The notes under the pieces: generated by a model | Seen by the model: the letters and a program-made list of their open reading frames with translations, nothing else | Told to the model about the DNA's origin: nothing | The model's database searches: none | Position numbers and translations under genes: made by a program | NCBI GenBank assembly: GCA_965226875.1 | Contig: OZ245439.1 | Coordinates: 711,081 to 775,080, forward strand | Direction: 5' to 3' | Source: Dehalococcoidia bacterium | GTDB taxonomy: Bacteria > Chloroflexota > Dehalococcoidia > Lucifugimonadales > UBA3495 | Length of the DNA stretch: 64,000 nucleotides | Shown: in pieces, positions 6,975 through 42,378 of the stretch | Position numbering within the stretch: the stretch's first letter is position 1 | Layout of the letters: each line of letters starts with the position of its first letter

Positions 6975-7122
6975 CTAAAGCCAAGGTGAAATGTACATAT
7001 CGCTAGACCGCACTATCGGTGCCCTCCCAGTTGGGGCCTGAAGGTGATATGAGGTGCCGTGGAGTCCTTGCGGTCATCGTCAATCTCCCGGAAATGCACA
7101 TCCCACCTTGGTATTGGTTTAG
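6975..7122 (-). repeat. R155 element (TA-flanked TIR element), divergent interior
   Basis: CTAAAGCCAAGGTGAAATGTACAT...ATGCACATCCCACCTTGGTATTGGTTTAG. Termini match the R155 family; the left terminus lacks about 5 nt. Confidence 0.8.
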
Positions 7123-7206
7123 CGTCGAGCTAAGGAAGAGCACGGCTTGAGTTCGCCGTGCTCTTCGGTAAACCTGTAGAAATTGTCCGGGAAGCCTGCG
7201 TTCGGG

Positions 7207-7734: not shown

Positions 7735-7890
7735 GATTGCTCTCCAAAAGTTTCGTTAGTTTGGGGTTGCGGGGCTAATTGTAACAGCCCCAAAACTGGA
7801 ATGGTAAGGTAGCGCCGACGATCAAGAAGAGACCTGCTACTGATCTGCGGCTGTAGTATCAGGGTCCTTTCGGTAGTCTTCAAGACCCTC

Positions 7891-7922
7891 GAAATGTAGA
7901 TCCCACCGTGGCTTTAGTTTAG
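7891..7922 (-). repeat. Solo R155 terminus
   Basis: GAAATGTAGATCCCACCGTGGCTTTAGTTTAG equals one R155 end without a partner within 150 bp. Confidence 0.7.
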
Positions 7923-18147: not shown

Positions 18148-18295
18148 ACCAAAGCCAAGGTGGGATGTACATTTAAGTGGCGATGATGATCAGCCGGGTT
18201 TCGCGGGTTAAATCCTCTCATCCGTACCTGGAGAATGACCCGTCCTCGTCGCTTGTCTCCCACCGTCTGCGCATTTCACCTTGGCTTCGGTTTAG
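18144..18295 (+). repeat. R155 element, subtype a
   Basis: CTAAACCAAAGCCAAGGTGGGATGTACATTT...CTGCGCATTTCACCTTGGCTTCGGTTTAG. Identical to 33605-33756 and inverted at 19525-19676. Confidence 0.9.
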
Positions 18296-19525
18296 TAGAC
18301 CACCATCATTGAAACGATGGCTGGTAAAATGTGAGAGGATGGCAGCCAAAGGAAAAATGTTGGGAAGTGGGGGTGGATGTGATGGTGAAGAAATACCGTG
18401 TGGCGCTGGCTGAGGAGGAGCAACAGGAACTGAAGGGGCTGGTGGGCCGGGGGCGGGCGGCAGCTTACCGGCAGACCCACGCCCGCATCCTGCTGCTCTG
18501 CGATGAGAACCAGGCCAACGGGTCCATGAAGGACGAGGAGATAGCCCGGGCCCTCAAGGTGGGAACCGCCACGGTGGAACGGGTGCGCCGCCGCTGTGTG
18601 GAGGAGAGTCTGGAGAGGTCCCTGGGACGCAAGGAGCAGCTTAACCGCCGCCCCAAGAAGCTGGACGGCCATGATGAAGCCCAGTTGATTGCCTTGGCCT
18701 GCTCCCAACCTCCGGAGGGCCGGGCCTCCTGGACGCTGCAACTGCTGGCGGATCGGCTGGTGGAATGCGAGATAGTGGACAGCATCAGCACCGAAACCGT
18801 GCGCCAGACACTGAAAAAAACGAACTCAAGCCTTGGCTGAAAGAGTGCTGGTGCATCCCGCCACAGGGCAACGCCGAGTTCGTCTGCGCCATGGAGGACG
18901 TGCTGGAGGTCTACCACCGTCAATTCGGGGACAACGAGGTGCTGGTGTGCCTGGACGAAACCAGCAAACAGCTGGTGAAGGAGACCCGCCAGCCCCTCCC
19001 GCCGCAGCCCAGGGCTGCCATGGCGTACGATTATGAATACCAGCGCAACGGAGTGAGCAACCGGTTCATGCTATTCGCCCCCTTGGAGGGGTGGCGGCGG
19101 GTGGAGGTCACCGAGCGACGCACCCGGACCGATTGGGCGCGAGTGGTACGGAAACTGGTGGATGAGGACTACCCCGACAAGGAGCGGATAGTGCTGGTGA
19201 TGGACAACTTGAACACCCATCATCCGGCTTCTCTGCACCAGGCTTTTGAGCCGGCCGAAGCGAGGCGTATCGCTGAACGGCTGGAGATTCATTACACGCC
19301 GAAGCACGGGAGTTGGCTCAATATGGCCGAGATCGAACTGGGAGTTCTGGCCCGGCAATGCCTGGACCGCCGGATTCCCGGGCAGGTAGTCCTGGAACAA
19401 GAGACCAAGGCGTGGCAGAACCAACGAAACCGTGACTCAATACGGGTGGACTGGCGCTTCACCACCAAGGACGCCCGCATCAAACTGAGGTCGCTATACC
19501 CATCACTCCAACGATGACAGACTAC
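18295..19525 (+). mobile_element. IS630-family element type A, copy 1 (1231 bp)
   Basis: Ends GTAGACCACCATCATTGAAACGATGG / CCATCACTCCAACGATGACAGACTAC (imperfect IR), flanked by TA (18293-94, 19526-27). Near-identical copies at 22170-23400 and 27680-28910. Confidence 0.9.
18331..19517 (+). CDS. IS630-family transposase, two frames joined by -1 frameshift at A7 (18814-18820)
   Basis: ORF1 ...VRQTLKK ends 18840. ORF2 continues KKNELKPWLKECWCIPP...DNLNTHH...GSWLNMAEIELGVL. The slippery run is conserved in all A and B copies. Confidence 0.85.
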
Positions 19526-19676
19526 TAAACCGAAGCCAAGGTGAAATGCGCAGACGGTGGGAGACAAGCGACGAGGACGGGTCATTCTCCAGGTACGGAT
19601 GAGAGGATTTAACCCGCGAAACCCGGCTGATCATCATCGCCACTTAAATGTACATCCCACCTTGGCTTTGGTTTAG
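19525..19676 (-). repeat. R155 element, subtype a (inverted)
   Basis: Reverse complement of 18144-18295; shares TA junctions with IS630-A and IS630-B. Confidence 0.9.
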
Positions 19677-20882
19677 TACCGTTTCCAGAAAGTCTTACAA
19701 TCATAAAGAAGATCAGGTAGGCTTGAGTAAAATCCTTTAGCGAGGCCGTACCTGACATGCCTGTCTCCAAATACAAAGTCGAACTGACCCAATCCGAACG
19801 CTCCGCTCTGATTGAAACATCCGGCCGTGGCAAGCCGTTGGCCCGCACGGTAAAGCGGGCCCTTGCGCTGTTGAAAGCTGACGAAGGACTCTTAGACCGC
19901 GAGGTAGCTGAGGCGGTTTCGCTCAGCGCCGCCACTGTTGCCTGAGTGCGGAGACGGTTCGTCGAGGAGGGACTGGAAGCCGCAATCAACGACCGGCCAC
20001 GGTCAGGCCGTGAGCGCAAGCTGAGCGGCAGACAGGAAGCGCACCTCGTCGCCATCGCGTGCAGCAATGCGCCCGAAGGACACACGAACTGGACGCTCCA
20101 TCTGCTGGCGGACAAGGTGGTGGAGCTGGAGTTTGCCGGGAGCATCTCCCTGGAGACGGTGCGCCAGATACTCAAAAAAACGAACTCAAGCCGTGGAAGA
20201 AGAAAGAATGGTGCATTCCCAAGGTGAGCGGGGAGTTCGTCGCCCGGATGGAGGATGTGCTGGACCTGTACCACGAAGAGTATGACCGGGAGCGTCCCGT
20301 GGTATGTTTCGACGAGACCTCCAGGCAGTTGGTCGAGGACGTGAGGCCACCCATCAAAGCCAAGCCCGGACGGGTGGAACGCTATGACACTGAGTACCAG
20401 CGAAACGGGACCCGGAACCTGTTCATGTTCTGTGAACCGAAGGGCGGATGGAGACACGTCGAAGTGACCGAGCGCCGCACTGCTGTGGACTTTGCTCACC
20501 AGATGCGCTGGCTGGTTGACCAGGCGTACCCCCACGCCAGGGTCGTCCGGCTGGTGTTGGACAATCTCAATACCCACAAGTTGGGCTCGCTCTACGAAGC
20601 ATTTGGAGCGTCCGAGGCGCGCCGCATAGCCAAACGCCTAGAGTTTCAACACACACCCAATCACGGAAGCTGGCTGAACATGGCCGAGATCGAGTTGAGC
20701 GTCTTCAGCAGGCAGTGTCTGAACCGCCGGATCGGCGATGAAGCGTTGCTGAAACGGGAGGTCGCAGCGCTCGAACGCGAGCGCAACGATGCTGGCGCCA
20801 TCATAGACTGGCGGTTCTCCACCCGGGACGCTCGCAGTAAGCTCAAACATGTATATCCAATAGAATTAAATTGAAACGGTAC
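19676..20882 (+). mobile_element. IS630-family element type B, copy 1 (1207 bp)
   Basis: Ends GTACCGTTTCC.../...GAAACGGTAC, TA flanks (19674-75, 20883-84). About 90% identical to 40886-42116. Confidence 0.9.
19757..20874 (+). pseudogene. IS630-B transposase with nonsense codon (TGA 19943-19945) plus the family A7 frameshift site (20174-20180)
   Basis: Copy 2 has AGA (Arg) where this copy has TGA. Otherwise colinear. Confidence 0.85.
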
Positions 20883-21032
20883 TAAACTAAAGCCAAGGTG
20901 GGATGTACATTTAAGTGGCGATGATGATCAGCTGGGTTATGCCGGTGAATCCCTCTCATCCGTACTTGGAGAATGACCCGGCTCCGTCGTTTGCCCCCAC
21001 CATCTGCGCATTTCACCTTGGCTTTAGTTTAG
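20882..21032 (+). repeat. R155 element, subtype b
   Basis: CTAAACTAAAGCCAAGGTGGGATGTACATTT...CTGCGCATTTCACCTTGGCTTTAGTTTAG. Confidence 0.9.
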
Positions 21033-21130
21033 TAGTCGAACATCTTTGAAATGAGGGTTAGTTGAGGTTAGCCTGATTGCGTGGCAATATTCGGGAAATG
21101 CTGCTCTCCCGTCAGGCTGCCAATTACTTA

Positions 21131-21990
21131 GAGCCTGTCTACGATCTTTGCAATATGTTAAGTTGAGGCTGTTACCAGAGGGGGTAATCATGTCTCATTC
21201 CTATTCCAGCGACATCAGCCGGGAACAGTTTGCCCGGATTCTTCCCTATTTGGAGTCGGCCCGCCGCCGGACCAAGCCCCGCACCGTGGACCTGTACGAC
21301 GTTTTCTGCGGGGTGCTCTATCTCCTGAAAAGCGGGTGCCAGTGGCGGATGCTGCCTGCGGACTTCCCAGATTGGCGCACCTGCTACAAGTATTTCCGGC
21401 AATGGAGCGAGCGACCCGACCCGGCGAAGTATTCCATTCTGGAGCAGGTCTTAAAAAAAATCGGTTGGCACAGCCCGACGAAGCAATGGTCGGAAAAAAC
21501 GGACCAGCTTCTGTATCGTGGACTCCCAGAGCGTCAAGAACACCGACAGCGCCGAGAACAAGGGCTATGACTCGGGCAAGAAGGTGTCTGGAATCAAGCG
21601 CCACATCGCCGTGGACACTCAGGGGTTGCCCCATGCGATTCACGTGACCACCGCCAACGTTACCGACCGTGCTGGGGCTTTGGCTATGTTTGACCGGCGC
21701 CGGGCCAACCTGAGGCAGGTGCAGAATGTGCTGGTGGATGGGGGATACACCGGGAAACCCTTTGCCACGGCGGTGCAGAGCCTGCTGGGAGCCTCGGTGG
21801 AAGTGGTGAAGCGCAACGAACTGCACACTTTCGTGGTGCTGCCGAAACGATGGGTGGTGGAGCGGTCTTTCGGCTGGCTGGAGAAGTGCCGCCGCCTCTG
21901 GAAGAACTGCGAGAGAAAGCTCAATACCAGCCTGCAAATGGTGGTTCTCGCCTTCGCGGTGCTAATCCTGAAGAGATTGTAAACAGGCTC
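21131..21990 (+). mobile_element. IS5-family (IS427-like) element type a, copy 1 (860 bp)
   Basis: IRs GAGCCTGTCTACGATC / GATTGTAAACAGGCTC; 3-bp direct repeat TTA (21128-30, 21991-93). Identical copy at 31617-32476. Confidence 0.9.
21190..21982 (+). CDS. IS5-family transposase split at an A8 run (21453-21460)
   Basis: ORF1 MSHSYSSDISREQFARILPYLE...CQWRMLP...EQVLKK. ORF2 (+1 frame) KSVGTARRSNGRKKRTSFCIVDSQSVKNTD...DGGYTG...ERSFGWL. An A7 run would give one continuous frame. Confidence 0.8.
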
Positions 21991-22019
21991 TTATACATCA
22001 ATTCAAAGCTGTTGGTCTA

Positions 22020-22170
22020 CTAAACTAAAACCAAGGTGAAATGCGCAGATGGTGGGGGCAAACGACGGAGCCGGGTCATTCTCCAAGTACGGATGAGAGG
22101 GATTCACCGGCATAACCCAGCTGATCATCATCGCCACTTAAATGTACATCCCACCTTGGCTTTAGTTTAG
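22020..22170 (-). repeat. R155 element, subtype b (inverted)
   Basis: Termini and interior match 20882-21032 in reverse. Confidence 0.9.
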
Positions 22171-23400
22171 TAGTCTGTCATCGTTGGAGTGATGGGTATA
22201 GCGACCTCAGTTTGATGCGGGCGTCCTTGGTGGTGAAGCGCCAGTCCACCCGTATTGAGTCACGGTTTCGTTGGTTCTGCCACGCCTTGGTCTCTTGTTC
22301 CAGGACTACCTGCCCGGGAATCCGGCGGTCCAGGCATTGCCGGGCCAGAACTCCCAGTTCGATCTCGGCCATATTGAGCCAACTCCCGTGCTTCGGCGTG
22401 TAATGAATCTCCAGCCGTTCAGCGATACGCCTCGCTTCGGCCGGCTCAAAAGCCTGGTGCAGAGAAGCCGGATGATGGGTGTTCAAGTTGTCCATCACCA
22501 GCACTATCCGCTCCTTGTCGGGGTAGTCCTCATCCACCAGTTTCCGTACCACTCGCGCCCAATCGGTCCGGGTGCGTCGCTCGGTGACCTCCACCCGCCG
22601 CCACCCCTCCAAGGGGGCGAATAGCATGAACCGGTTGCTCACTCCGTTGCGCTGGTATTCATAATCGTACGCCATGGCAGCCCTGGGCTGCGGCGGGAGG
22701 GGCTGGCGGGTCTCCTTCACCAGCTGTTTGCTGGTTTCGTCCAGGCACACCAGCACCTCGTTGTCCCCGAATTGACGGTGGTAGACCTCCAGCACGTCCT
22801 CCATGGCGCAGACGAACTCGGCGTTGCCCTGTGGCGGGATGCACCAGCACTCTTTCAGCCAAGGCTTGAGTTCGTTTTTTTCAGTGTCTGGCGCACGGTT
22901 TCGGTGCTGATGCTGTCCACTATCTCGCATTCCACCAGCCGATCCGCCAGCAGTTGCAGCGTCCAGGAGGCCCGGCCCTCCGGAGGTTGGGAGCAGGCCA
23001 AGGCAATCAACTGGGCTTCATCATGGCCGTCCAGCTTCTTGGGGCGGCGGTTAAGCTGCTCCTTGCGTCCCAGGGACCTCTCCAGACTCTCCTCCACACA
23101 GCGGCGGCGCACCCGTTCCACCGTGGCGGTTCCCACCTTGAGGGCCCGGGCTATCTCCTCGTCCTTCATGGACCCGTTGGCCTGGTTCTCATCGCAGAGC
23201 AGCAGGATGCGGGCGTGGGTCTGCCGGTAAGCTGCCGCCCGCCCCCGGCCCACCAGCCCCTTCAGTTCCTGTTGCTCCTCCTCAGCCAGCGCCACACGGT
23301 ATTTCTTCACCATCACATCCACCCCCACTTCCCAACATTTTTCCTTTGGCTGCCATCCTCTCACATTTTACCAGCCATCGTTTCAATGATGGTGGTCTAC
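22170..23400 (-). mobile_element. IS630-family element type A, copy 2
   Basis: Reverse complement of copy 1; same 1231-bp length; TA flanks. Confidence 0.9.
22178..23364 (-). CDS. IS630-A transposase (two frames, -1 frameshift)
   Basis: ORFs 22855-23364 and 22178-22930 translate identically to copy 1. Confidence 0.85.
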
Positions 23401-23550
23401 TAAACTAAAGCCAAGGTGAAATGCGCAGATGGTGGGGGCAAACGACGGAGCCGGGTCATTCTCCAAGTACGGATGAGAGGGGTTCACCGGCATAACCCAG
23501 CTGATCATCATCGCCACTTAAATGTACATCCCACCTTGGCTTTAGTTTAG
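23400..23550 (-). repeat. R155 element, subtype b (inverted)
   Basis: Same orientation as 22020-22170; a few substitutions. Confidence 0.9.
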
Positions 23551-23855: not shown

Positions 23856-24416
23856 CTACCTGTCCGCCTGTTGGATGGTCCAACGGCTGACCTCCAGGCG
23901 CTTGGCCAGTTCCCGCTGGCTCACTCCCTTCGACCGCTCCGCCCGGATGTACTCCCGTTGCTGCTCAGTCAGGCTCGGCCGCCGGCCAGGGAAACGGCCC
24001 TCGGTCCGTGCCTTCGCCTGGCCCGCGACGGAGCGCTCCCTGATCGAGTTCCGCCACCACTCGCTGAAGGCGAGCACCATCACGAGCTGGAGCTTGCCGG
24101 TGGTCGTGGACGTGTCGAAGTCTTCCGCCAGGGACCGGAACTCCACTCCCGCCCGGTGCAGGCCCTCGATCACCTGCAGCCCATAGGTCAGCCCCCTGGA
24201 GAGCCGGTCGATGTGGGTGACCACCAGGGTGTCCCCCTCGAGCACCAGGTCCAGCAGTTCCAGGAGGCCGCCGCGGTCGTTCTTGGCCCCGCTGGCCTCC
24301 TCGGCTCGAATGTTGCTCATGGCACAGCCAGAGCGGACCAGCCGTTCCACCTGCAGGTCCAGATTCTTGTCCTCCGGCTCTCTGACCGAGACCCTGGCAT
24401 AGCCGTACAGCGTCAA
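23856..24416 (-). CDS. Small serine recombinase (resolvase/invertase family)
   Basis: TTG start at 24416; the truncated paralog at 31146 has ATG at the same codon. TLYGYARVSV...LVVTHIDRLSR... plus C-terminal HTH (VSQRELAKRLEVSRWTI). Confidence 0.85.
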   Translation of the reverse strand: MTLYGYARVSVREPEDKNLDLQVERLVRSGCAMSNIRAEEASGAKNDRGGLLELLDLVLEGDTLVVTHIDRLSRGLTYGLQVIEGLHRAGVEFRSLAEDFDTSTTTGKLQLVMVLAFSEWWRNSIRERSVAGQAKARTEGRFPGRRPSLTEQQREYIRAERSKGVSQRELAKRLEVSRWTIQQADR

Positions 24417-24477
24417 CCCTCTACACCCCTGGCTGGAATACCTGAAGTATGACTGTCTGCCAGCGGTTCTGCAACCG

Positions 24478-24536
24478 GGTTTTACAGCCATCCCTTCAGC
24501 TACGGGGAGTGGGGATTTACAGCCATGGCTGTAAAC
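24478..24536. promoter_or_regulatory. res-like recombinase binding region upstream of the resolvase gene
   Basis: Half-site TTTACAGCCAT (24481-91) and perfect 20-bp palindrome TTTACAGCCATGGCTGTAAA (24516-35). A third related site TTTCCAGCCATGG is at 24751-63. The whole arrangement is duplicated at 31205-31285. Confidence 0.5.
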
Positions 24537-24544
24537 GGGGGGGG

Positions 24545-24741
24545 CTGACAGGGGTATGTAAAAGCGAGATTATAGCTACGAACCGTCCCCGCCACCCCTG
24601 GATTCCCGACTACGCCGGAATGACCGAATGGGCCCGGTAGTAAGCATTTGGGGGCGATTTTGTATCTGCGTTCTCCTAACCTACTATCCGATCTCACGAT
24701 CAACTGCGTAAGTCTCAAAATAAAATACATACCCCTGTCAG
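24545..24741. mobile_element. 197-bp TIR-bounded miniature element inserted within the res-like region
   Basis: TIRs CTGACAGGGGTATGTA / TACATACCCCTGTCAG, flanked by G-runs (G8 and G7). The paralogous site at 31262-31275 lacks it. Confidence 0.7.
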
Positions 24742-25158
24742 GGGGGGCTGTTTCCAGCCATGGCGGGCGGGTGCGGCCTGGCCAGAGCCGGCGTTTCAGA
24801 CTCGGCGATCATGCGGCAGGGACGGTGGTCCGGGAGTGCCGTTGACATCTGGCCGTAGCGCGGAAGCATCCACCGCTGGCATAATTGAACGGTCGCTGAC
24901 CAACGGCGACGCTGGCCGGCCCGACCAACCGGGCGGTCATCTTTTTGCCATGAGCCTTTGAGGACTTGCCGCCGACTACGCAACATGTGGCTGAACCAAG
25001 GTGCATCAGCCGTAATTGCCGGCGAAACCCCCGGTTCAGAGAAACGTACTGGGCCGCCCCGCTTAGGGGGCGGCCCGAAGCATAATATTGCCAACATCTC
25101 CAACGCCGGACCCCATCCAAGACACTGTTCGCTCGAGCACGCCGAGGACGAAGCAACC

Positions 25159-26754
25159 ATGACCTCACAGAACCACATCGAAATCCGCCTGGCCGAACTC
25201 CTCAAGGAAATCAAGGACGGGGACCAATGGCAGGTGGGCTACCCAGGCAACCAGAACTTCGATTACTCCCCTCTCATACCATTCCTCAGCCACTGCCTCA
25301 ACAACCTCGGGGACCCCTTCCACCAGACCAACTACCGGGCCAACACCCACCAATTCGAACGAGAGGTCATCCTCCATTTCGCCCAACTCACCGGACTGGA
25401 TCCCGACGACGCCTGGGGCTACGTCACATCGGGCGGCACCGAGGGCAACATGTACGGCCTCTACCTCGCCCGGGAACTCCATCCCGAGGGTATGCTCTAC
25501 TTCTCCGAGGAAGCCCACTATTCGATCCTCAAGATTGCCCGCATCCTCAACATGCCTCACACCACCGTCAAACGACGTACCGACGGCGAGATCGACTACG
25601 ACGACCTCCGGGACATGCTGACCGTCCACCGGGACCGTCCCGCCATCATCCTGGCCACCATCGGCACCACCATGCGCGGTGCCGTGGACGACATCCCCGC
25701 GATCCGGCAGATCATTGACGAACTGGACATCGGAGAACACTACATTCACGCGGACGCAGCACTCAGCGGCATGATCCTGCCCTACGTGGATGACCCACAG
25801 CCTTTCGGGTTCGACGCCGGCATCGACAGCATCTCCATCAGCGGCCACAAACTCATCGGCGCACCCCTGCCCTGCGGTATCGTTCTCACCCGCAAACACC
25901 TGGTTGAAATCCTGGGCAGGGCCGTGGAACTCGTCGGCGTCAACGACACCACCCTGTCCGGTTCCCGCAACGGCCTGACCCCGCTCATGCTCTGGTACGC
26001 CATTAACCGTTACGGCGAACATGAATGGAGAGAAACCGTTCGAGGAATGCTCGACACCGCCGAGTACGCCGTGAAACGGTTCAATGAACACGGCATCAAC
26101 GCATGGCGACACCGGAACTCTCCCACCGTTGTATTCGACCGACCCTCGCAGGAAGTCTTCGACAGGTGGCAGATTGCCCCCGAGGGCGAAGTGGCCCACA
26201 TCATCACCATGCCCCATGTGGACTTCCACACCATTGACCGCTTGGTCAAGGACTGCATCAGCCCGCATTCCGAACCGCCGCCGGAACACGATCTCCAGCC
26301 AGCGGAAACTGTCCTGCTGGCTCAAGAGCAGGAGACGGAGCCCGCTCAAGCAACAACGATGGCGCGCATCGTGATCATGGCCGAAAACCGCATCGGGACC
26401 ATTGCCCGGATTGCCGGCACCCTGGCCGAGAGCGGAGTGAACCTCAATAGCATCGCGACCGAGAACGAGGGACAACACGGAGTGGTGATCATCACCACCG
26501 ACCGGACGGACCACGCCCTTGCGATCCTCAACCAAGCCGGCTTCAAAGCAGTCGCTGACGAAGCTGTACTGGTCCAGCTGGCGGACCAGGCCGGAGCCCT
26601 GGCCAACCTAGCCGGCGAACTCAAGGACGCCGGCCTCAGCATCAGGACTTTCCACATCATCGAGCGCCGGGATGACTACGCGACCGCAGCCATCACCACC
26701 GATGACCAGGAAAAGGCCAAGACGGCCCTGGCCAACCGCTATACCGTAATATAA
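25159..26754 (+). CDS. PLP-dependent histidine-decarboxylase-like enzyme fused to two C-terminal ACT domains
   Basis: Start MTSQNHIE (25159). Group II decarboxylase motifs incl. SISGHKLIGAPLPCGIVL (PLP Lys). C-terminal ~140 aa form two ACT-like modules (RIVIMAENRIGTIARIAGTLAESGVNL...; LVQLADQAGALANLAGELKDAGLSI...). Confidence 0.8.
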   Translation: MTSQNHIEIRLAELLKEIKDGDQWQVGYPGNQNFDYSPLIPFLSHCLNNLGDPFHQTNYRANTHQFEREVILHFAQLTGLDPDDAWGYVTSGGTEGNMYGLYLARELHPEGMLYFSEEAHYSILKIARILNMPHTTVKRRTDGEIDYDDLRDMLTVHRDRPAIILATIGTTMRGAVDDIPAIRQIIDELDIGEHYIHADAALSGMILPYVDDPQPFGFDAGIDSISISGHKLIGAPLPCGIVLTRKHLVEILGRAVELVGVNDTTLSGSRNGLTPLMLWYAINRYGEHEWRETVRGMLDTAEYAVKRFNEHGINAWRHRNSPTVVFDRPSQEVFDRWQIAPEGEVAHIITMPHVDFHTIDRLVKDCISPHSEPPPEHDLQPAETVLLAQEQETEPAQATTMARIVIMAENRIGTIARIAGTLAESGVNLNSIATENEGQHGVVIITTDRTDHALAILNQAGFKAVADEAVLVQLADQAGALANLAGELKDAGLSIRTFHIIERRDDYATAAITTDDQEKAKTALANRYTVI

Positions 26755-26974
26755 GCACGCCGTCTTTCCGGCGGAGGCCGGAATCCAGGATCTCTTACTG
26801 GAAAACGGTGCAGTTCTCTTAGCATTCCTGGGTCCCGGCTTTCGCCGGGAGGACGGTAGGGTCTACTGAAACCGGCCCTCGCAGACCGTCTTGATCCGAT
26901 TCCGGGCCGCCGGGCGGCCCTCGGCGCGCTGCCGGGACAGCATGTTCAACCTTGCGGGCCGCCTCGGAATTTGA

Positions 26975-27011
26975 TCATATGGGAACTTTTACACCAAAAG
27001 TTCCCATATGA
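26975..27011. repeat. Perfect 16-5-16 palindrome overlapping the recombinase start codon
   Basis: TCATATGGGAACTTTT acacc AAAAGTTCCCATATGA; the ATG of ORF 27008 is inside the right arm. Confidence 0.95.
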
Positions 27012-27553
27012 TTCCCCACTACTGGAACCCCCAACAGGTCGAGCGGCTCTTGGACTCCCTGGCGGCCCTGGGGCTTCGCCGCACCCGGGTGGCGGCACTC
27101 ATCATGTGGCGAACCGGGCTGCGTGTCGGTGAGACCGTGGCCCTGGAATGGCGGGACATAGACGTCACGGTCGGCTCCCTGCTGGTCCGCCGCGGCAAGG
27201 GCGGCAGGGGCCGGACCGTCCCGCTGCACCCGGACCTGGCCAGCCTGTTCGCCAACTGGCCCACGTCCTATGGCCCGCGCGATCCCGTTGTCGGACTGAC
27301 CAGGAAAACAGTCCTGCGGCATCTGCGGGCTGGCATCGAGCATGCCGACTTGGATGAGGAGTCGCCGGGGACCGGGCGACAGAGAGCTGGGGCCCACAGC
27401 CTCCGGCACAGTGCCGCCCGTCACTGGCTGACCACCGCGGGGATCCCGCTGAACGTGGTCTCCCAGTGGCTGGGGCATGCCAACCCGGAGGTGACGCTCC
27501 GCATCTACCCTCCCATCGTGGGCAGCACCCACTCCATGGCGGACGTGCCGTAG
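27008..27553 (+). CDS. Tyrosine recombinase, catalytic domain only (181 aa)
   Basis: TGLRVGE (Arg), HSLRHSAA (His-x-x-Arg), WLGH, LRIYPP (Tyr). No N-terminal core-binding domain; an in-frame stop lies 12 codons upstream. Confidence 0.75.
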   Translation: MIPHYWNPQQVERLLDSLAALGLRRTRVAALIMWRTGLRVGETVALEWRDIDVTVGSLLVRRGKGGRGRTVPLHPDLASLFANWPTSYGPRDPVVGLTRKTVLRHLRAGIEHADLDEESPGTGRQRAGAHSLRHSAARHWLTTAGIPLNVVSQWLGHANPEVTLRIYPPIVGSTHSMADVP

Positions 27554-27604
27554 GTTCAGGCGTCGCGGATGGCGTGTTCGCGGCGGCTGTTGTTGCCGGG
27601 ATGA

Positions 27605-27680
27605 CTAAACCAATACCAAGGTGGAATCTACATAGACCCTGACGCGAATCCTTGCATTTTTCAGCTGGGCTTTGGTCTAG
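27605..27680 (+). repeat. R155 element, internally deleted and degenerate (76 bp)
   Basis: CTAAACCAATACCAAGGTGGAATCTACAT...GGGCTTTGGTCTAG. Confidence 0.65.
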
Positions 27681-28910
27681 TAGACCACCATCATTGAAAC
27701 GATGGCTGGTAAAATGTGAGAGGATGGCAGCCAAAGGAAAAATGTTGGGAAGTGGGGGTGGATGTGATGGTGAAGAAATACCGTGTGGCGCTGGCTGAGG
27801 AGGAGCAACAGGAACTGAAGGGGCTGGTGGGCCGGGGGCGGGCGGCAGCTTACCGGCAGACCCACGCCCGCATCCTGCTGCTCTGCGATGAGAACCAGGC
27901 CAACGGGTCCATGAAGGACGAGGAGATAGCCCGGGCCCTCAAGGTGGGAACCGCCACGGTGGAACGGGTGCGCCGCCGCTGTGTGGAGGAGAGTCTGGAG
28001 AGGTCCCTGGGACGCAAGGAGCAGCTTAACCGCCGCCCCAAGAAGCTGGACGGCCATGATGAAGCCCAGTTGATTGCCTTGGCCTGCTCCCAACCTCCGG
28101 AGGGCCGGGCCTCCTGGACGCTGCAACTGCTGGCGGATCGGCTGGTGGAATGCGAGATAGTGGACAGCATCAGCACCGAAACCGTGCGCCAGACACTGAA
28201 AAAAACGAACTCAAGCCTTGGCTGAAAGAGTGCTGGTGCATCCCGCCACAGGGCAACGCCGAGTTCGTCTGCGCCATGGAGGACGTGCTGGAGGTCTACC
28301 GCCGTCAATTCGGGGACAACGAGGTGCTGGTGTGCCTGGACGAAACCAGCAAACAGCTGGTGAAGGAGACCCGCCAGCCCCTCCCGCCGCAGCCCAGGGC
28401 TGCCATGGCGTACGATTATGAATACCAGCGCAACGGAGTGAGCAACCGGTTCATGCTATTCGCCCCCTTGGAGGGGTGGCGGCGGGTGGAGGTCACCGAG
28501 CGACGCACCCGGACCGATTGGGCGCGAGTGGTACGGAAACTGGTGGATGAGGACTACCCCGACAAGGAGCGGATAGTGCTGGTGATGGACAACTTGAACA
28601 CCCATCATCCGGCTTCTCTGCACCAGGCTTTTGAGCCGGCCGAAGCGAGGCGTATCGCTGAACGGCTGGAGATTCATTACACGCCGAAGCACGGGAGTTG
28701 GCTCAATATGGCCGAGATCGAACTGGGAGTTCTGGCCCGGCAATGCCTGGACCGCCGGATTCCCGGGCAGGTAGTCCTGGAACAAGAGACCAAGGCGTGG
28801 CAGAACCAACGAAACCGTGACTCAATACGGGTGGACTGGCGCTTCACCACCAAGGACGCCCGCATCAAACTGAGGTCGCTATACCCATCACTCCAACGAT
28901 GACAGACTAC
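27680..28910 (+). mobile_element. IS630-family element type A, copy 3
   Basis: 1231 bp, TA flanks; one amino-acid difference (YRRQF vs YHRQF) from copies 1 and 2. Confidence 0.9.
27716..28902 (+). CDS. IS630-A transposase (two frames, -1 frameshift)
   Basis: ORFs 27716-28225 and 28150-28902. Confidence 0.85.
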
Positions 28911-29061
28911 TAAACTAAAGCCAAGGTGAAATGCGCAGATGGTGGGGGTCAAACGACGGAGCCGGGTCATTCTCCAAGTACGGATGAGAGGGATTCACCC
29001 GCGCAACCCAGCTGATCACCATCGCCACTTAAATGTACATCCCACCTTGGCTTTAGTTTAG
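28910..29061 (-). repeat. R155 element, subtype b-like (inverted)
   Basis: Termini conserved. Its TTA (29058-60) supplies the stop codon of the downstream minus-strand gene. Confidence 0.9.
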
Positions 29062-29477
29062 TCCATTTGTTGCAGCACCTCTCCGGATAATTCTGTGATC
29101 TTGTCTATCTTAATGAGGACGGCGACACCCAGACGTTCAGGGTCCCGGTCCAGTTCGGCTTGGACGCAGCGATCCATGACTTCTTGGCGAATGGGACCGT
29201 CTTCGTGGACGGTGGCCTTGCCGTGGAACCGCCACCTCACCCGGTCGGCAGCGTGGGCGTAGTAGACGACGACCTGCGGATTCTCGGCAACGTTGTCCAA
29301 GGCCGACCGCTTGGCCCGCTCCCAATAGGCCAGCGTATCTCTGTCGAAGGCCATCACGCTTCCCTTGGGGCTTATCTGGGGTTCGCCGTCCTTGGAGGCC
29401 GTGCCCACCAGGCAAGAATATCCGTCGGCTAAAGCGCTGTCCAATCGCGATACCATCTCGTCGGTCAAATTGATCAT
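29058..29477 (-). CDS. Pyridoxamine-5-phosphate-oxidase-like (split beta-barrel) family protein
   Basis: 139 aa. LVGTASKDGEPQISPKGS...FDRDTLAYWE pattern is typical of PNPOx-like proteins. Assignment from memory. Confidence 0.55.
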   Translation of the reverse strand: MINLTDEMVSRLDSALADGYSCLVGTASKDGEPQISPKGSVMAFDRDTLAYWERAKRSALDNVAENPQVVVYYAHAADRVRWRFHGKATVHEDGPIRQEVMDRCVQAELDRDPERLGVAVLIKIDKITELSGEVLQQMD

Positions 29478-29789
29478 CGTAGTCTATCTCCTTGGGAGTA
29501 ACGGCAGTTTGTAAGGCTCTGTCCATCGAAACCATCCGTCTTGATGGGGACCAGTATTCGAGAGCACTCTCTGCCATATGTAACTCTTTCCTTGCATCAT
29601 TTCTGGATCCTGGTTTCCGCACATCATGGGAGCGTAGGCCTCGTCGCATTGTGCGGCCCTTGAAGTAAACCAAAGCCAAGGCGGGATGTGCCATTTGCGG
29701 GGATCGGCCGAGCTTCGGCGAGAGTCAGCGTGCCTGCTGGGTTTCCTGATTCCGAAGTGGCCTTCGCCTTTGCCGGGTCTGATTCGCTT

Positions 29790-30131
29790 TCATCGCAGGA
29801 GGGTGCCTATCATCCCCAAAACCTGTTCCACCACTCGCGGAGTTGTTTGGGTTGCTAAACCCGCCTGCCTCGCGCGCCAGTCCAGGCTCTTGATGTGGTC
29901 GGACAGCACCACGCCGGTGATGGCGCCTCCATGCGGGAGGGGTACTTCAAAGGGGTAACCCTTCGCTGCCGTGGTAACCGGACAGAATAGGGCCAAGCCT
30001 GTCCTGTCGTTATAGCTCCTGGGACTCAGGACCAGCGCCGGCCGGCGGCCCGCCTGCTCGGGCCCGGCATGAGGGCTGAAGTTCAGCCAAACGATGTCGC
30101 CTCTGTCGGGAACATAGGGTGCACTCACCAT
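29790..30131 (-). CDS. mazF: MazF/PemK-family toxin
   Basis: MVSAPYVPDRGDIVWLNFSPHAGPEQAGRRPALVLSPRSYN...FCPVTT... Overlaps mazE by 7 nt. Confidence 0.85.
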   Translation of the reverse strand: MVSAPYVPDRGDIVWLNFSPHAGPEQAGRRPALVLSPRSYNDRTGLALFCPVTTAAKGYPFEVPLPHGGAITGVVLSDHIKSLDWRARQAGLATQTTPRVVEQVLGMIGTLLR

Positions 30132-30364
30132 GTTTCGTTGCCTTGGGCTGAGCCTGTATCCCATTCAGAATGCAGGTTATCTGTGGTGACCCGGGACAAC
30201 AATTCATCCAGGTCGTATGCCCTCTTGGTCAGGGTCAAACGTTCACCGTCCGTGGTCATCTCAATTGCCGACCCGACGTGGACGCCCCACTCTTCTGCAA
30301 GGGGTTTTGGTATCCGTACCGCGAGGCTGCTACCCCACCGGGCTACGTGCGATTGCGTTCCCAT
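30125..30364 (-). CDS. mazE: AbrB/MazE/SpoVT-family antitoxin
   Basis: 79 aa; VARWGSSLAVRIPKPLAEEWGVHVGSAIEM is the swapped-hairpin AbrB-type motif. Confidence 0.8.
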   Translation of the reverse strand: MGTQSHVARWGSSLAVRIPKPLAEEWGVHVGSAIEMTTDGERLTLTKRAYDLDELLSRVTTDNLHSEWDTGSAQGNETW

Positions 30365-30546
30365 TTGAGATCCTCACTGTCGCAGATAGATATATAATAT
30401 ATATCCAACTGCGGGCGTGTTGTCCAGCGTGTGATTGCGGGTGCGGAGCAGTGGTACCGCCTGCAATCGAGGGCTGAAAAGCTGCTGCGGCACTTCCAGC
30501 CCCATCGCCAATCCCTCCCTGGTGCACATCTCACCTTGGCTTCGGT

Positions 30547-30927
30547 TTAGGTCGTATCCTCTTCCAAGATGATCTTCAGCAACTGGTCGACCGCACGTTT
30601 GGTCGAACGCCTGTCCGCTGCCAAGCGAGTTTCGTCCAGGTGTCCGTGCAGGAAGTGCTGCTGGAGCTGGGCCGCGGCTTCGAAGTCCTGCCGCCAGCCG
30701 GGCTGGTGTTGTTTGTCCGCCAACCTGTCGGCCACATCTTTCATGTGTTGCTCGCTACAGCATTCCCACCCGTGGACCATTGCCACGGCGATCAGGCCGC
30801 GGGCGAAGGCCCCCCAGAGCATGTCGGCGGCAATCATCTGGTCTGTCATGCGTTCACTCGTCTCGAACCCCTGGTCGGAGAGCTCGACCAGTTCCCTGAT
30901 GCGTGCGGTCTGCTCGTCTGTACTCAT
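30547..30927 (-). CDS. Hypothetical helical protein (possibly HEPN/PaREP1-like)
   Basis: 126 aa; weak resemblance only (...AAAQLQQHFLHGHL...). The stop codon TAA is supplied by the R155-type terminus at 30547-49. Confidence 0.35.
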   Translation of the reverse strand: MSTDEQTARIRELVELSDQGFETSERMTDQMIAADMLWGAFARGLIAVAMVHGWECCSEQHMKDVADRLADKQHQPGWRQDFEAAAQLQQHFLHGHLDETRLAADRRSTKRAVDQLLKIILEEDTT

Positions 30928-31077
30928 TTTTTCACCTCTTGTTAAAGTTTGATTTCCAGATTCAGGTCAAAGGCGGTGTATTCCGGGTTTCCTGTGTCTT
31001 GGACACAGAAAGCCATGCCCGACTGTCGCTCTTATTGCCCATGGAGCAGCCGGCGCGGCCCAGCCGCTCCCTCCACC

Positions 31078-31146
31078 TGCAGATCCAGATTTTTGTCCTC
31101 CGGCTCTCTCACCGAGACCCTGGCGTAACCGTATAACGTCATCCAT
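31078..31146 (-). pseudogene. N-terminal fragment of a resolvase paralog with its res-like upstream region
   Basis: MTLYGYARVSVREPEDKNLDLQVE, then divergence and a stop. Upstream 31150-31290 duplicates 24420-24540 plus 24745-24790. Confidence 0.75.
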
Positions 31147-31389
31147 CTGCACCCCTGGCTGGAATACCTGAACTATGGCTTTCTGCCAGAGGTTGTGCAA
31201 CTGGGTTTTCCATCCACCCCTTCAGCTACGGGGAGTGGGGATTTACAGCCATGGCTGTAAACAGGTGGGCTGTTTCCAGCCACCCGCTGGCGGGGGCGTG
31301 CTTGGGAAACGGGACCGAAAAGGACCCTGCCCGCTGGGGATCGGTGCGGCACCGGAGACTCCACCGTGGGCATCAGAGGGGCCGTGGGA

Positions 31390-31443
31390 CTTTGCACAAT
31401 GAATCCTTTTTAATTCATGCCAATTCCCATTCATTGTGCAAAG
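31390..31443. repeat. AT-rich hairpin element (CTTTGCACAATGAAT...ATTCATTGTGCAAAG)
   Basis: 15-bp inverted ends; related copy at 49755-49805. Confidence 0.8.
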
Positions 31444-31616
31444 CCTCGAGGCAGGTAACTCGGCTTTGTCGTGCTGTTGATCTGGTCGGTCTCAAACTTT
31501 GTTTCGTTTAGGCGATGCAAAGGGCCCAGCCAATGCTGGGCCTCGTACGGTGATAGCTCTGCGCTCGGCGTTGACAACTGTGGTGGTGGTGGGCGCCCGT
31601 GGTGGGAGATTTCTAA

Positions 31617-32476
31617 GAGCCTGTTTACAATCTCTTCAGGATTAGCACCGCGAAGGCGAGAACCACCATTTGCAGGCTGGTATTGAGCTTTCTCTCGCAG
31701 TTCTTCCAGAGGCGGCGGCACTTCTCCAGCCAGCCGAAAGACCGCTCCACCACCCATCGTTTCGGCAGCACCACGAAAGTGTGCAGTTCGTTGCGCTTCA
31801 CCACTTCCACCGAGGCTCCCAGCAGGCTCTGCACCGCCGTGGCAAAGGGTTTCCCGGTGTATCCCCCATCCACCAGCACATTCTGCACCTGCCTCAGGTT
31901 GGCCCGGCGCCGGTCAAACATAGCCAAAGCCCCAGCACGGTCGGTAACGTTGGCGGTGGTCACGTGAATCGCATGGGGCAACCCCTGAGTGTCCACGGCG
32001 ATGTGGCGCTTGATTCCAGACACCTTCTTGCCCGAGTCATAGCCCTTGTTCTCGGCGCTGTCGGTGTTCTTGACGCTCTGGGAGTCCACGATACAGAAGC
32101 TGGTCCGTTTTTTCCGACCATTGCTTCGTCGGGCTGTGCCAACCGATTTTTTTTAAGACCTGCTCCAGAATGGAATACTTCGCCGGGTCGGGTCGCTCGC
32201 TCCATTGCCGGAAATACTTGTAGCAGGTGCGCCAATCTGGGAAGTCCGCAGGCAGCATCCGCCACTGGCACCCGCTTTTCAGGAGATAGAGCACCCCGCA
32301 GAAAACGTCGTACAGGTCCACGGTGCGGGGCTTGGTCCGGCGGCGGGCCGACTCCAAATAGGGAAGAATCCGGGCAAACTGTTCCCGGCTGATGTCGCTG
32401 GAATAGGAATGAGACATGATTACCCCCTCTGGTAACAGCCTCAACTTAACATATTGCAAAGATCGTAGACAGGCTC
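31617..32476 (-). mobile_element. IS5-family (IS427-like) element type a, copy 2
   Basis: Identical 860 bp in reverse; 3-bp direct repeat TAA (31614-16, 32477-79). Confidence 0.9.
31625..32417 (-). CDS. IS5-family transposase split at the same A8 run
   Basis: ORFs 32037-32459 and 31625-32089 translate identically to copy 1. Confidence 0.8.
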
Positions 32477-32582
32477 TAAGGGTCCTTGGTCCGGTGTTCC
32501 GTCCGGGGAGCCGGGTTGGGGAGTGCTGCTGGAGCTCTTCATCCCTAGTCAGGAGGTGTCCGAGGCGTCAAGCCCGCTGCTG

Positions 32583-33032
32583 TCAGAGGCTCATTGTCCC
32601 GTCCGCCAGGTGCGGAGTGAGCTGGAGCTTGCCTCTCGTCTTGTCGTACAGCAGCCGGCAACGGTCGATCACGTCCCTGCCCAGTAGAGACGGCAGGTTT
32701 CTGTTGCCCCGGTCGGGCACCGCTACCGCCAGTTCTGTCTGGAAGTAGACCAGTCTTGTCTTTCGCCAGGGCCAGGGCCTCTCTTGGAATGCGATGAAGG
32801 CTGGCACCGTGGCGTAGCTGATCGTGCCTCCGATTCCCCTGCTTGTGCCCGTCGGGCTCAGGTCCTGTGTGCTTATTCCCAGTATCCTCGCCCCGGCGGG
32901 CTGGATGAAGGTGTTGTCTGCGCCGGTGTCCAGCAGCAGCGCGGTCGCTTCCGGGGCCGGCTGCAGGCCAGGGACCACCACGTAGGCCCGGACATACGGG
33001 CGCCCGGCAGGGTCGAAGTATCCCTCGATCAT
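32583..33032 (-). CDS. Retropepsin-like (clan AA) aspartic protease family protein
   Basis: 149 aa; LLLDTGADNTFI contains the D-T-G-A active-site motif; C-terminal LLGRDVI. Confidence 0.7.
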   Translation of the reverse strand: MIEGYFDPAGRPYVRAYVVVPGLQPAPEATALLLDTGADNTFIQPAGARILGISTQDLSPTGTSRGIGGTISYATVPAFIAFQERPWPWRKTRLVYFQTELAVAVPDRGNRNLPSLLGRDVIDRCRLLYDKTRGKLQLTPHLADGTMSL

Positions 33033-40248: not shown

Positions 40249-40737
40249 TTACGTCAGAAGTTTGTCGGCTAACTCGATGAAGTCGTCCACGATGATGTCG
40301 GGCTGGTACTCCGAGTCTTCGGTGGGGAGCTTGTACCGGTTGACGTAGGCCGCTTTGAAGCCGCAGGCCTGGGCACCCAGGATATCGAAAGCGTGCGCGG
40401 CGACCATCATGATCTCCCCGGGTTCGCACCCCAGCCGCTGTATCGCCTTGCGGTATATCCTTGGCGAAGGCTTGAACGCGCCAACCTGATCCACGGATAT
40501 TATGGCGTCGAACCTTACCGGGACGTTGTTGCCCAGCAGCTCCTCCAAGTACCACTGCTCCCCGTTGGAAAGGGCAATCAGCTTGTAACGCTCCGCCAGC
40601 GACTGCAGCCCTTCAATGGCGTTTCCGTAAGGCTTCAGGCCCTTGTAGACCTCCATAAACTCCTGCACCGCGCCGGGGGTGTAGCTGACGTTGTGCTTCT
40701 TTAGGCAGTAAACGAAGGCCCGGCGGCAGGTCTCTAA
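40249..40737 (-). pseudogene. HAD-superfamily hydrolase (haloacid dehalogenase type II-like), 5-prime truncated
   Basis: ...LSNGEQWYLEELL...VGAFKPSPRIY...MVAAHAFDILGAQACGFKAAYVNR. The open frame runs directly into the R155 terminus at 40734. Confidence 0.65.
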
Positions 40738-40886
40738 ACTAAGGCCAAGGTGGGATCGACATTTCTGAGATGATGACGGCAGGTCAGCGCTGCCAACTAA
40801 AGCTTTACCGTCCGCACATTGAAGTCAGTCCTCCCCCGGTCACCGAGTATCCTTCGAATGCGCATTTCACCTTGGCTTTGGTTTAG
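40734..40886 (+). repeat. R155 element, subtype c
   Basis: Conserved termini. Interior differs from subtypes a and b but is related to 44358-44509. Confidence 0.9.
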
Positions 40887-42116
40887 TACCGTTTCCAGAT
40901 AGATTTACAAGAATATGAGAAGGCAGCCATACTTGGGCATGATCTTTCTGTGGGGGAGTATCCAGACATGGCTGCCATCAAATATAAAGTCGAGCTGGCT
41001 GAATCCGAACGCTCCCGTCTCAATGAGGTTTCCCACCGGGGCAAACCGTCAGTCCGCACCGTCAAGCGGGCGCTGGCGTTGCTCAAAGCGGATGAAGGAC
41101 TTCGGGACGCTGAGATAGCCGGTGCGCTTTTGATCAACGCCGCCACCGTTGCCAGAGTGCGGAAGCGGTTCGTCGAGGAAGGACTTGAGGCCGCCATCAA
41201 TGACAAGCCACGGCCGGGCCGTGAGCGCAAGCTGAGCGGCAGACAGGAAGCGCACCTCGTCGCCATCGCATGCAGCAATGCGCCCGAAGGACACACGAAC
41301 TGGACGCTCCATCTGCTGGCGGACAAGGTGGTGGAGCTGGAGTTTGCCGGGAGCATCTCCCTGGAGACGGTGCGCCAGATACTCAAAAAAACGAACTCAA
41401 GCCGTGGAAGAAGAAAGAATGGTGCACTCCCAAGGTGAGCGGGGAGTTCGTCGCCCGGATGGAGGACGTGCTGGACCCCGTATCCAGTACGGGGCAGGCT
41501 CTTTATCACGAAGAGTATGACCGGGAGCGTCCGGTGGTGTGTTTCGACGAGACCTCCAAGCAGTTGCTCGGGGACGTGAGGCCGCCCGTCAAAGCCAAGC
41601 CCGGACGGGTGGAGCGCTATGACACCGAGTACCAGCGAAACGGGACCCGGAACCTGTTCATGTTCTGTGAACCGAAGGGTGGGTGGAGGCACGTCGAGGT
41701 GACCGGGCACCGCACTGCCGTTGACTTCGCGCACCGGATGAAGTGGCTGGTGGACGAGGCATATTCTGACGCCACGGTGATCCGACTGGTGTTGGACAAT
41801 CTCAACACCCACAAGTTGGGCTCGCTCTACGAAGCGTTTGCACCGTCCGAGGCGCGCCGCATAGCCAAGCGCCTGGAGTTTCACCACACACCCGTTCACG
41901 GAAGCTGGCTGAACATGGCTGAAATCGAGTTGAGCGTATTCAGCAGGCAGTGTCTGAACCGCCGGATCGGCGATGAAGCGTTGCTGAGACGGGAGGTCGC
42001 AGCACTCGAACGCGAGCGCAACGATGCTGGCGCCATCATAGACTGGCGGTTCTCCACTCGGGACGCTCGCAGTAAGCTCAAACATGTCTATCCAATAGAA
42101 TTAAATTGAAACGGTA
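40886..42116 (+). mobile_element. IS630-family element type B, copy 2 (1231 bp)
   Basis: TA flanks (40884-85, 42117-18). Carries a 24-bp in-frame insertion relative to copy 1. Confidence 0.9.
40950..42109 (+). CDS. IS630-B transposase (two frames, -1 frameshift at A7)
   Basis: ORFs 40950-41438 and 41270-42109; no nonsense codon in this copy. Confidence 0.8.
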
Positions 42117-42378
42117 CTAGCCACCACAAGATTCACGCGATTCGCAAAATTGCAATGATGGAATTATGCTTTTCATAGTGGTAAATTCTTGTATGCAAAT
42201 TTCGTCCCATAACGCTAAAATGTGGCACCTTCCCGTTAATCGTTCAAACTGCTGCGGACATACCAAGCTTCCGCATGAAACCGAGCTTCAATCTCAGCGG
42301 CCTGCAAGTAGAATCCGGACACCTCCATTGGAACCATAGGCACTACAAATATATACGGCAGATGAAAAGGGGTTCGCC

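Follow-up and report, generated by a model that had tools for sequence, protein, structure and literature searches.

A mazEF toxin-antitoxin operon between IS630-type termini: a probable mobile insertion cassette in Dehalococcoidia

The stretch of DNA considered here, referred to as the window, comprises 64,000 nucleotides of a Dehalococcoidia bacterium (assembly GCA_965226875.1, contig OZ245439.1, positions 711,081 to 775,080 of the forward strand). Near its middle lies a mazEF toxin-antitoxin operon enclosed by two single termini of a repeat family, R155, that also occurs in the window as transposable elements of the miniature, inverted-repeat kind (MITEs) of about 150 bp. The segment, hereafter the cassette, and its relatives in metagenome-assembled genomes (MAGs) of Dehalococcoidia (Chloroflexota) are described below, the related loci being designated by numbers with the prefix L.

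On the mazF side the terminus TAAACCAAAGCCAAGGCGGGATGTGCCATTT begins on the plus strand at position 29666, and its counterpart begins on the minus strand at 30549, where it reads TAAACCGAAGCCAAGGTGAGATGTGCAC (also given as TAAACCGAAGCCAAGGTGAGATGTGCACC); both were read directly from the DNA. Together they form an inverted repeat with 43-nt arms of 74% complementarity and 798 nt between the arms. With two mismatches or fewer allowed, the window has 23 occurrences of the 16-nt terminal core, against 0.06 expected by chance, and this count was reached in none of 100 shuffles. A window scan for the core found no other R155 terminus within 600 bp of either end of the cassette. The closest ones are at 29038-29060 (606 bp away and part of the MITE at 28911-29060) and at 33606, and the pair 29666/30549 is the only one in the window spaced 884 bp. 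An earlier note on this DNA had recognized the two termini at these places and in the correct relative orientation, with no partner within 150 bp and with only mazF and mazE between them. All of this is borne out, as neither Pfam nor the list of open reading frames (ORFs) gives any other credible gene inside. Two of its details change: it had described each terminus as flanked by TA and the unit as 886 bp long. TA is indeed present at both ends, but it belongs to the termini themselves, forming the outermost two bases of each conserved terminus (29666-29667 and 30548-30549) with G and G outside, and the same unit measures 884 bp from TA to TA (29666-30549), the larger figure counting one extra base per side. 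The TA at the cassette tips is the target dinucleotide that elements of the IS630 type duplicate.

The cargo is a compact operon (Table 1) in which mazE lies upstream of mazF and the two genes overlap by 7 nt. A PemK/MazF-fold toxin and an overlapping AbrB/MazE-type antitoxin in one operon identify the pair, from sequence, as a type II toxin-antitoxin module of the MazEF/PemIK kind, and both proteins are predicted to be active. The exact MazF protein is present on 23 contigs. Among 11 relatives compared, mazF is intact in every one and mazE in nine (it is not a clean ORF in the other two), with dN/dS values against relatives of 0.07-0.34 for mazF and 0.11-0.31 for mazE. Such ratios (0.07-0.34 overall), together with the mostly intact genes, indicate that mazEF is maintained by purifying selection. 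The region upstream of mazE, including its near-palindrome at 30389-30405, is kept in all mazEF relatives, with or without termini, and probably serves as the native promoter/operator; a strict scan of the cassette returned neither a sigma-70 consensus nor a terminator. There is no transposase gene inside, the sole similarity to a transposase being a 29-aa C-terminal remnant at one end. Inverted repeats of insertion sequence (IS) type thus surround passenger genes without a transposase gene, which in ISfinder terms is the definition of a mobile insertion cassette (MIC).

Where do these termini come from? The loci fetched through the mazEF proteins also hold autonomous IS with matching termini, 1215-1239 bp long (L042:112-1350, L003:16880-18117, L022:951-2185 and L031:4418-5632; a partial copy lies in L032). 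They code for an N-terminal HTH_23/HTH_29 ORF and an HTH_33 plus DDE_3 ORF (Pfam), which is the architecture of the IS630 family, and the transposase reading frame terminates within the right inverted repeat (...ANAHPALALV*). The left end of these IS (left inverted repeat, IRL, or B-type end) is GGTGAAATGCGCAGA, and the right end (right inverted repeat, IRR, or A-type end) is GGTGGGATGTGCATTTG. At the mazE side of the cassette, positions 30454-30549 align colinearly, with 82% of 98 nt identical (E 6.5e-20), to the IS of L032 along its final 97 bp, and their translation, LQSRAEKLL...AHLTLASV, can be laid against the transposase C-terminus LQSRAEALL...AHPALALV. Compared with the IRR of the IS in L042, L022, L003, L031 and L032, the mazF-side terminus shows 85-97% identity over 26-40 nt, and both cassette ends are most similar to the IRR. 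By these matching terminal repeats, the cassette is a non-autonomous derivative of the IS630/Tc1-mariner family.

The cognate transposase belongs to a family of 5032 clusters at 90% identity (E<=1e-60), in which single-ORF forms of 382 aa are numerous. In close relatives it is encoded within a few kb of the cassette, and the host of the L022 copy is a near-identical relative of the window strain (99.5% identity over window 29049-31617). In a survey of about 1.2 Mb, made up of the window and the related loci, the lengths spanned by inverted adjacent pairs of termini cluster discretely at about 150 bp (21 distinct sequences), 884-886 bp (10), 1215-1239 bp (4) and 1368 bp (1).

A clean insertion is seen in another Dehalococcoidia species, where the 1368-bp variant (L037:4097-5464, 92% nucleotide identity over mazEF) lies within a DUF3987 gene. 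This variant retains 88-106 transposase codons, approximately 300 bp or about a third of the gene, and looks like a less-deleted form of the cassette. When L037:4099-5464, i.e. the element plus one TA, is deleted in silico, the DNA reads ...CCCC-TA-GGTT..., a CTAG target, and a 402-aa ORF is restored, whose DUF3987 match (residues 94-401) spans the junction at residue 374. Six intact homologues (48-62% identity) align without gaps across the junction; the residues that follow it, GALRERSFAGRASELTARIAAVLSGAE, match QALHERTFAGRAAELAARLAGVLSAAE, and protein P0002 has the same residue at 19 of the 28 positions behind the junction. Because the frame is broken if neither or both TAs are kept, the target duplication is 2 bp. 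P0001, the read-through protein of the interrupted DUF3987 gene, has 8 member sequences and is listed for 2 contigs. For the cassette family, L037 thus shows insertion at a TA that becomes duplicated, a rule with which the window copy is only consistent.

The 884-bp form also changes its surroundings. In L005 and L006, which come from two samples, only 29666-30550 is common with the window (98% identity) and both flanks differ, reading ...GCGGC-TA...TA-GTACC...; a third contig, from the sample of L006, shows the same gene neighbourhood. The left junction takes six distinct forms (designated W, B, D, E, L039 and L037), each of which reads C-TA, and at least three distinct right junctions are found, while the termini and interior stay constant and non-chimeric across the W, B, D and E contexts. 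The junctions recur in independent samples: B in ERZ26167216 and ERZ25766727, D in L004 and L031, and the pairing of a B-left with a W-right flank in L003 and in the GTDB genome L036. L003 is not an obvious sequence mosaic of B and W and has private variants of its own. The left flanks of B, D and E were also sought in the window to test a deletion model, and nothing informative was found there. The same cassette therefore lies at different sites with breaks exactly at its inverted repeats, although some of these arrangements may have arisen by rearrangement at the termini.

We conclude with good confidence that window 29666-30549 is an IS-derived, presumably trans-mobilised MIC of the IS630/Tc1-mariner family that carries mazEF. 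That a cassette of the R155 family has transposed as a unit is very probable, and that the window copy is currently mobile is considerably less so. The non-autonomous transposable unit with toxin-antitoxin cargo suggested in the earlier note is in agreement with termini that match an autonomous IS, an IS remnant at one end, the missing transposase and the L037 insertion. On this reading, two transposase-binding terminal repeats with TA at their tips enclose a self-contained mazEF operon together with its upstream region. About 96 bp of the IS 3' end survive at the mazE side, while its left repeat and almost the whole transposase gene have given way to antisense mazEF and a short second IRR-like terminus. 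In the proposed mechanism, the cognate DDE transposase of an autonomous copy, acting in trans, would bind both termini, excise the 884-bp segment and insert it at a TA that becomes duplicated, with a preference for the context C-TA-G. The chemistry would be cut-and-paste, by analogy with IS630/Tc1 elements. The toxin-antitoxin module, in turn, would favour retention of the cassette by penalizing the cells that lose it.

Table 1. Features of the mazEF cassette, its flanks and the DinB segment (window coordinates).
Feature	Position	Strand	Details
mazF toxin gene, 113 aa, PemK/MazF family	29790..30131	-	ATG at 30131; PF02452 PemK_toxin, E 2.8e-23
mazE antitoxin gene, 79 aa	30125..30364	-	PF04014 MazE_antitoxin, E 7e-12
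mazE upstream region	30365..30453	-	AT-rich near-palindrome GATATATAATATATATC at 30389-30405; TGGACA -35-like hexamer on the - strand at 30421-30426
mazF-side terminal inverted repeat	29666..29708	+	core 29666-29688; similarity to partner arm extends to 43 nt; IRR-like (A-type)
Non-coding spacer, terminus to mazF stop codon	29709..29789	-	conserved in related cassettes (alignment of window, L036-L040 and L045)
IS630-family transposase 3' remnant and right inverted repeat	30454..30549	+	terminal inverted repeat arm 30507-30549; terminal TA 30548-30549
Flanking 126-aa ORF	30547..30927	-	no Pfam match
Flanking PNPOx-like gene	29058..29477	-	junction with cassette kept in most relatives and in other species
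Closest 150-bp MITE, one of nine full copies in the window	28911..29060	-	independent element, not a partner of the cassette termini
DinB_2/MST-family gene between MITE and solo end	7207-7734	-	

Several observations weigh against such a mobile cassette. Most contigs, and also other GTDB species (L036, L038, L039), keep the mazF-side junction with the PNPOx-like gene, and in L036 synteny extends beyond PNPOx; this conservation across species implies that most copies are vertically inherited. Long contigs (4.35, 4.0 and 2.3 Mb) show the cassette once each; the one of 4.0 Mb (ENA ERZ28763718 ctg125357) matches the window at 100% identity. No empty site was found at the window locus, as all contigs with the exact PNPOx or 126-aa protein have a terminus or the whole cassette, even where other elements have intervened (in L027 an IS3 element cuts the terminus, leaving TTGGTTTA, and in L034 an IS21 element lies within mazF). 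A metagenome scan for the empty site, GAGGATACGACC-N(0-8)-CTTCAAGGGCCGC, likewise gave a single chance match, exact over 25 nt. The clean insertion described above belongs to the 1368-bp variant of another species and not to the 884-bp form, and no cognate transposase was found in the 64-kb window. A chimeric terminus in L132, a relative of another R155 segment described below, indicates that exchange inside termini occurs. Finally, the right flank of B reads unit-TA-ISX-type MITE-TA-GCCACC and uses the same TA as window position 42118 (C-TA-GCCACC), a site occupied in the window by a MITE end together with a full ISX, an IS630-type element with other ends. An independent insertion, with this CTAG as a hot target, could account for the flank, and so could an inversion involving two R155 termini.

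The window copy was probably inherited at an old locus, to judge from the shared junctions; this locus may be the original one, and the copy may not have moved recently. The earlier note had reasoned that a single-copy unit, with orthologous mazEF lacking termini at the same locus in relatives, would speak against transposition. The single copy per contig and L038, which has one terminus, at that locus, go some way in this direction. Only the mazF-side terminus is present in L038, L040, L044 and L045 (as a degraded remnant in the last two), and distant mazEF loci (MazF identity <=83%) have no intact terminus. Is the mazF-side end, then, the older terminus? This idea is weakened by L038, where 20 transposase codons remain upstream of mazE. 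The same MAG (CBDCQN01, contigs 3 and 1, corresponding to L038 and L039) has two mazEF plus PNPOx copies, whose MazF proteins are 92% and 91% identical to that of the window; one copy has both termini and the other the mazF-side terminus with the 20-codon remnant. Flank turnover is one-sided, only the left flank having changed. This may be the classical signature of transposase-mediated adjacent rearrangement or, alternatively, of a local hop after which copies recombined with each other.

Many of these points would also be expected if mazEF were a resident chromosomal module that happens to sit between two independently decayed R155 solo ends and never moved as a unit, the other flanks having arisen by recombination or inversion between R155 termini and neighbouring IS elements. 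The PNPOx junction and the synteny beyond it, the one cassette per contig, the loci with a mazF-side terminus only, the L132 terminus and the B-left/W-right combination in L003 and L036 all fit this account, as does the heavy regional rearrangement evident from nested arrays and hot-spot TAs. We nevertheless regard it as very improbable. Decayed ends do not account for a cassette inside a DUF3987 gene with both termini and an exact TA duplication, nor for termini and interiors that are constant and non-chimeric in W, B, D and E. Six left junctions that all read C-TA are expected for CTAG-like targets rather than for random breakage, and an identity of 16 nt is very short for recombination from terminus to terminus.

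Homologous recombination offers another route, in which a mazEF copy converts a resident R155 IS or MITE through terminal and subterminal homology, so that L037 would be an older IS insertion converted later. The roughly 300 bp of transposase remnant in the L037 variant would provide a long homology arm shared with autonomous IS, R155 IS and MITE copies are extremely abundant (witness the size of the transposase family), and exchange inside termini is exemplified by L132. The second homology arm, however, would be only 33-40 nt long, and there is no site with an IS or MITE in one genome and the cassette in another between identical flanks, a site upstream of thymidylate-kinase genes (see below) sharing the right flank only. 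As transposition also needs fewer steps, gene conversion appears very improbable. Metagenome assembly might in principle have created the different contexts through chimeric joins at a repeat, since all comparison loci are metagenome contigs or MAGs and one stretch, L007:7300-9340, is a noisy, insertion-riddled duplicate resembling an assembly or consensus problem. The recurrence of the junctions across independent samples and assemblies, and of P0001 on 2 contigs with 8 member sequences, leaves this explanation with a negligible probability. The L007 stretch itself (with counterparts in L012, L021 and L033) was rejected as evidence of transposition: it repeats the 126-aa gene and the cassette in perfect blocks, with short insertions by the dozen in between (68% identity, 24% gaps), and looks like either an artefact of assembly or consensus or a degenerate tandem duplicate.

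A more far-reaching proposal builds on the MIC reading. It is conceivable, though doubtful, that mazEF is the addiction device of the cassette, that IS-family ends act as a general vehicle for gene capture in IS-saturated Dehalococcoidia genomes (mazEF here, a DinB gene at 6975-7921), and that the one-sided flank turnover is the trace of repeated transposase action. If so, cells in which the cassette is excised and not reinserted, or deleted, would lose the labile antitoxin and become arrested, and a transposase-less element of MITE-like size would become practically impossible to lose and persist as a single copy.

How does the cassette compare with known systems? In Bacillus cereus, MIC231 is mobilised by IS231. 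The MIC concept (IS ends and passenger genes, no transposase) also covers Tn3-derived MICs that carry TALE genes in Xanthomonas (PMC4133298, PMC7157771). As in these units, IS inverted repeats bracket the passenger genes in the absence of a transposase, which makes for dependence in trans, and MITEs and autonomous copies coexist with the cassette. The present cassette differs in belonging to the IS630 family with its TA target rather than to IS4/IS231 or Tn3, in having a toxin-antitoxin operon as its sole cargo and in the resemblance of both ends to the right end of the IS; its mobilisation is predicted. IS630-family MITEs are also known in bacteria, for example Nezha of cyanobacteria. They share the kind of termini, the TA duplication and an origin from IS630-type IS, but are shorter than 300 bp, non-coding and bounded by IRL and IRR, whereas the cassette has 884 bp and two genes under selection; it is too long, and coding, to be called a MITE.

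Toxin-antitoxin modules have been described inside Tn3-family transposons (Lima-Mendez et al. 2020, PMC7157771), as in Tn4662a (PMC4133298). There, too, a type II pair travels in a transposon and a maintenance benefit has been proposed. Those transposons are large, autonomous and replicative, with the toxin-antitoxin genes beside resolvase and transposase genes, whereas here the module is the sole content of a minimal non-autonomous element from a family taken to be cut-and-paste. In composite units of the TIME-COMP type, two complete miniature elements flank the cargo (PMC4133298). The principle of mobilising cargo through ends borrowed from a transposon family is the same, but mazEF is bounded by single termini and not by two whole MITEs. 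With a single terminus on each side, the cassette does not qualify as a composite transposon. Nearer to such a design is segment 6975-7921, with its whole MITE, DinB gene and solo end. A literature search found MICs and Tn3 transposons bearing toxin-antitoxin modules, and no IS630-derived cassette that carries only such a module.

Toxin-antitoxin modules are notoriously mobile, yet their vehicle is rarely visible. Here it would be explicit and minimal, consisting of two IS630-type ends only, and related genomes preserve the intermediates: the autonomous IS, the 1368-bp form, the 884-bp form and forms with one terminus. The locus thus offers a testable system for the birth of non-autonomous cassettes from insertion sequences, for the stabilization of a cut-and-paste element by toxin-antitoxin cargo, and for the way in which TA-targeting IS630-family elements build nested arrays and remodel genomes. 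For annotation, the lesson is to look for cargo wherever several hundred bp separate MITE-family termini.

The short R155 copies have a different origin from the cassette. Nine MITEs of 149-151 bp, which account for most of the 23 terminal cores, start in the window at 18145, 19526, 20883, 22021, 23401, 28911, 33606, 40735 and 44359, in addition to a 75-bp variant (27606-27680), a 5'-truncated MITE (6975-7121) and a solo end (7899-7921). The 150-bp MITEs carry both IS end types, GGTGAAATGCGCAGA and GGTGGGATGTRCATTT, and still encode the last 36 transposase codons; judged by these ends they are IRL plus IRR deletion derivatives of the 1.2-kb IS. The suggestion in the earlier note that the cassette gave rise to the short copies does not hold, as both ends of the cassette are IRR-like.

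The IS630-type transposases of the window itself were considered as mobilisers of the cassette or as the source of its termini, and were rejected. Their elements, named ISY (18295-19525, 22170-23400 and 27681-28910) and ISX (19676-20882 and 40886-42117), have the ends GTAGACCACCATC... and GTACCGTTTCC..., unlike R155 termini; their proteins have no BLASTP similarity to the cognate transposase (E 0.42), and their contact with R155 MITEs is one of mere adjacency, across a TA dinucleotide common to both.

The DinB segment had been proposed as a looser parallel, with R155 ends bracketing a DinB-family gene. Part of this stands: segment 6975-7922 recurs as a block with both flanks different in L132:2812-5408 and with only the left flank different in L133:2114-3760, the left terminus being complete in both. 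In the window, however, its bounds are a whole 147-bp MITE (6975-7121, left terminus short by 5 nt) and a solo end at 7899-7921 that points the same way as 7099-7121. The L132 copy has an IS inserted at about position 7165. Its right terminus is chimeric, so that the evidence for mobility is weaker than for mazEF.

Several further observations concern the way in which these elements are arranged. From 18145 to 23549 the window is an unbroken alternating array with a shared TA at every joint: MITE, IS630-type IS (18295-19525), MITE, a second IS630-type IS (19676-20882), MITE, an IS5-type IS (21032-22020; DUF4096 and DDE_Tnp_1), MITE, a reversed IS630-type IS (22170-23400) and MITE. Elements that start with G and end with C regenerate CTAG on both sides upon insertion, and this may be the reason for the nesting. 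The B-type end of the MITEs always abuts a look-alike motif of about 25 nt, GTAGWC..CAtC.TTGAA..GATGG (18295.., 19525, 21032.., 22020, 23400, 27681.., 28910 and 33756..), present whether the neighbour codes for an IS630-type transposase, an IS5-type transposase or nothing recognizable.

At TA 42118-42119 (C-TA-GCCACCACAAG; L005:10827; L117/L122/L124:4862), upstream of thymidylate-kinase genes, three different nested pairs occur among genomes. The window has a MITE (40735-40885) and the 1232-bp IS, L005 has the mazEF cassette and a 127-bp MITE with the ends of the 1232-bp IS, and L122 has another R155 end and a MITE of a third type of about 125 bp. As L122 lies on the same 2.3-Mb contig as the B copy of mazEF, the thymidylate-kinase region is duplicated there.

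As to the immediate flanks of the cassette, the TAA stop codon (30549-30547) of the 126-aa ORF consists of the terminal TA of the cassette plus an A. Without the cassette, this ORF would be 176 codons longer and would cross PNPOx in a different frame, probably without any meaning. The one match of the empty-site scan (L116:3069-3098, VEDTTAAFKGRT) falls in a soil metagenome, within the gene for a urease alpha subunit. It is a coincidence between GC-rich coding sequences and a warning that brief junction patterns are prone to fortuitous matches.

On a larger scale, window 24000-33000 and loci L001-L035 are saturated with IS630, IS5/DUF4096, IS110, IS21 and IS3 elements and Tn3 fragments, accompanied by IS605/TnpB (Cas12f1-like_TNB), resolvases, integrase fragments and HigB toxin-antitoxin genes, and the gene order around 24000-33000 varies between near-identical strains. 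Two of the contigs bear a suffix (_c) that apparently denotes circularity: L005 (ERZ26167216 ctg490484_40.76x_c, 157 kb), with the B copy of the cassette, and L027 (ERZ25074053 ctg465178_15x_c, 118 kb), with the PNPOx copy whose terminus is cut by IS3. Parts of this mobile-element-rich region may reside on large plasmids in some strains.

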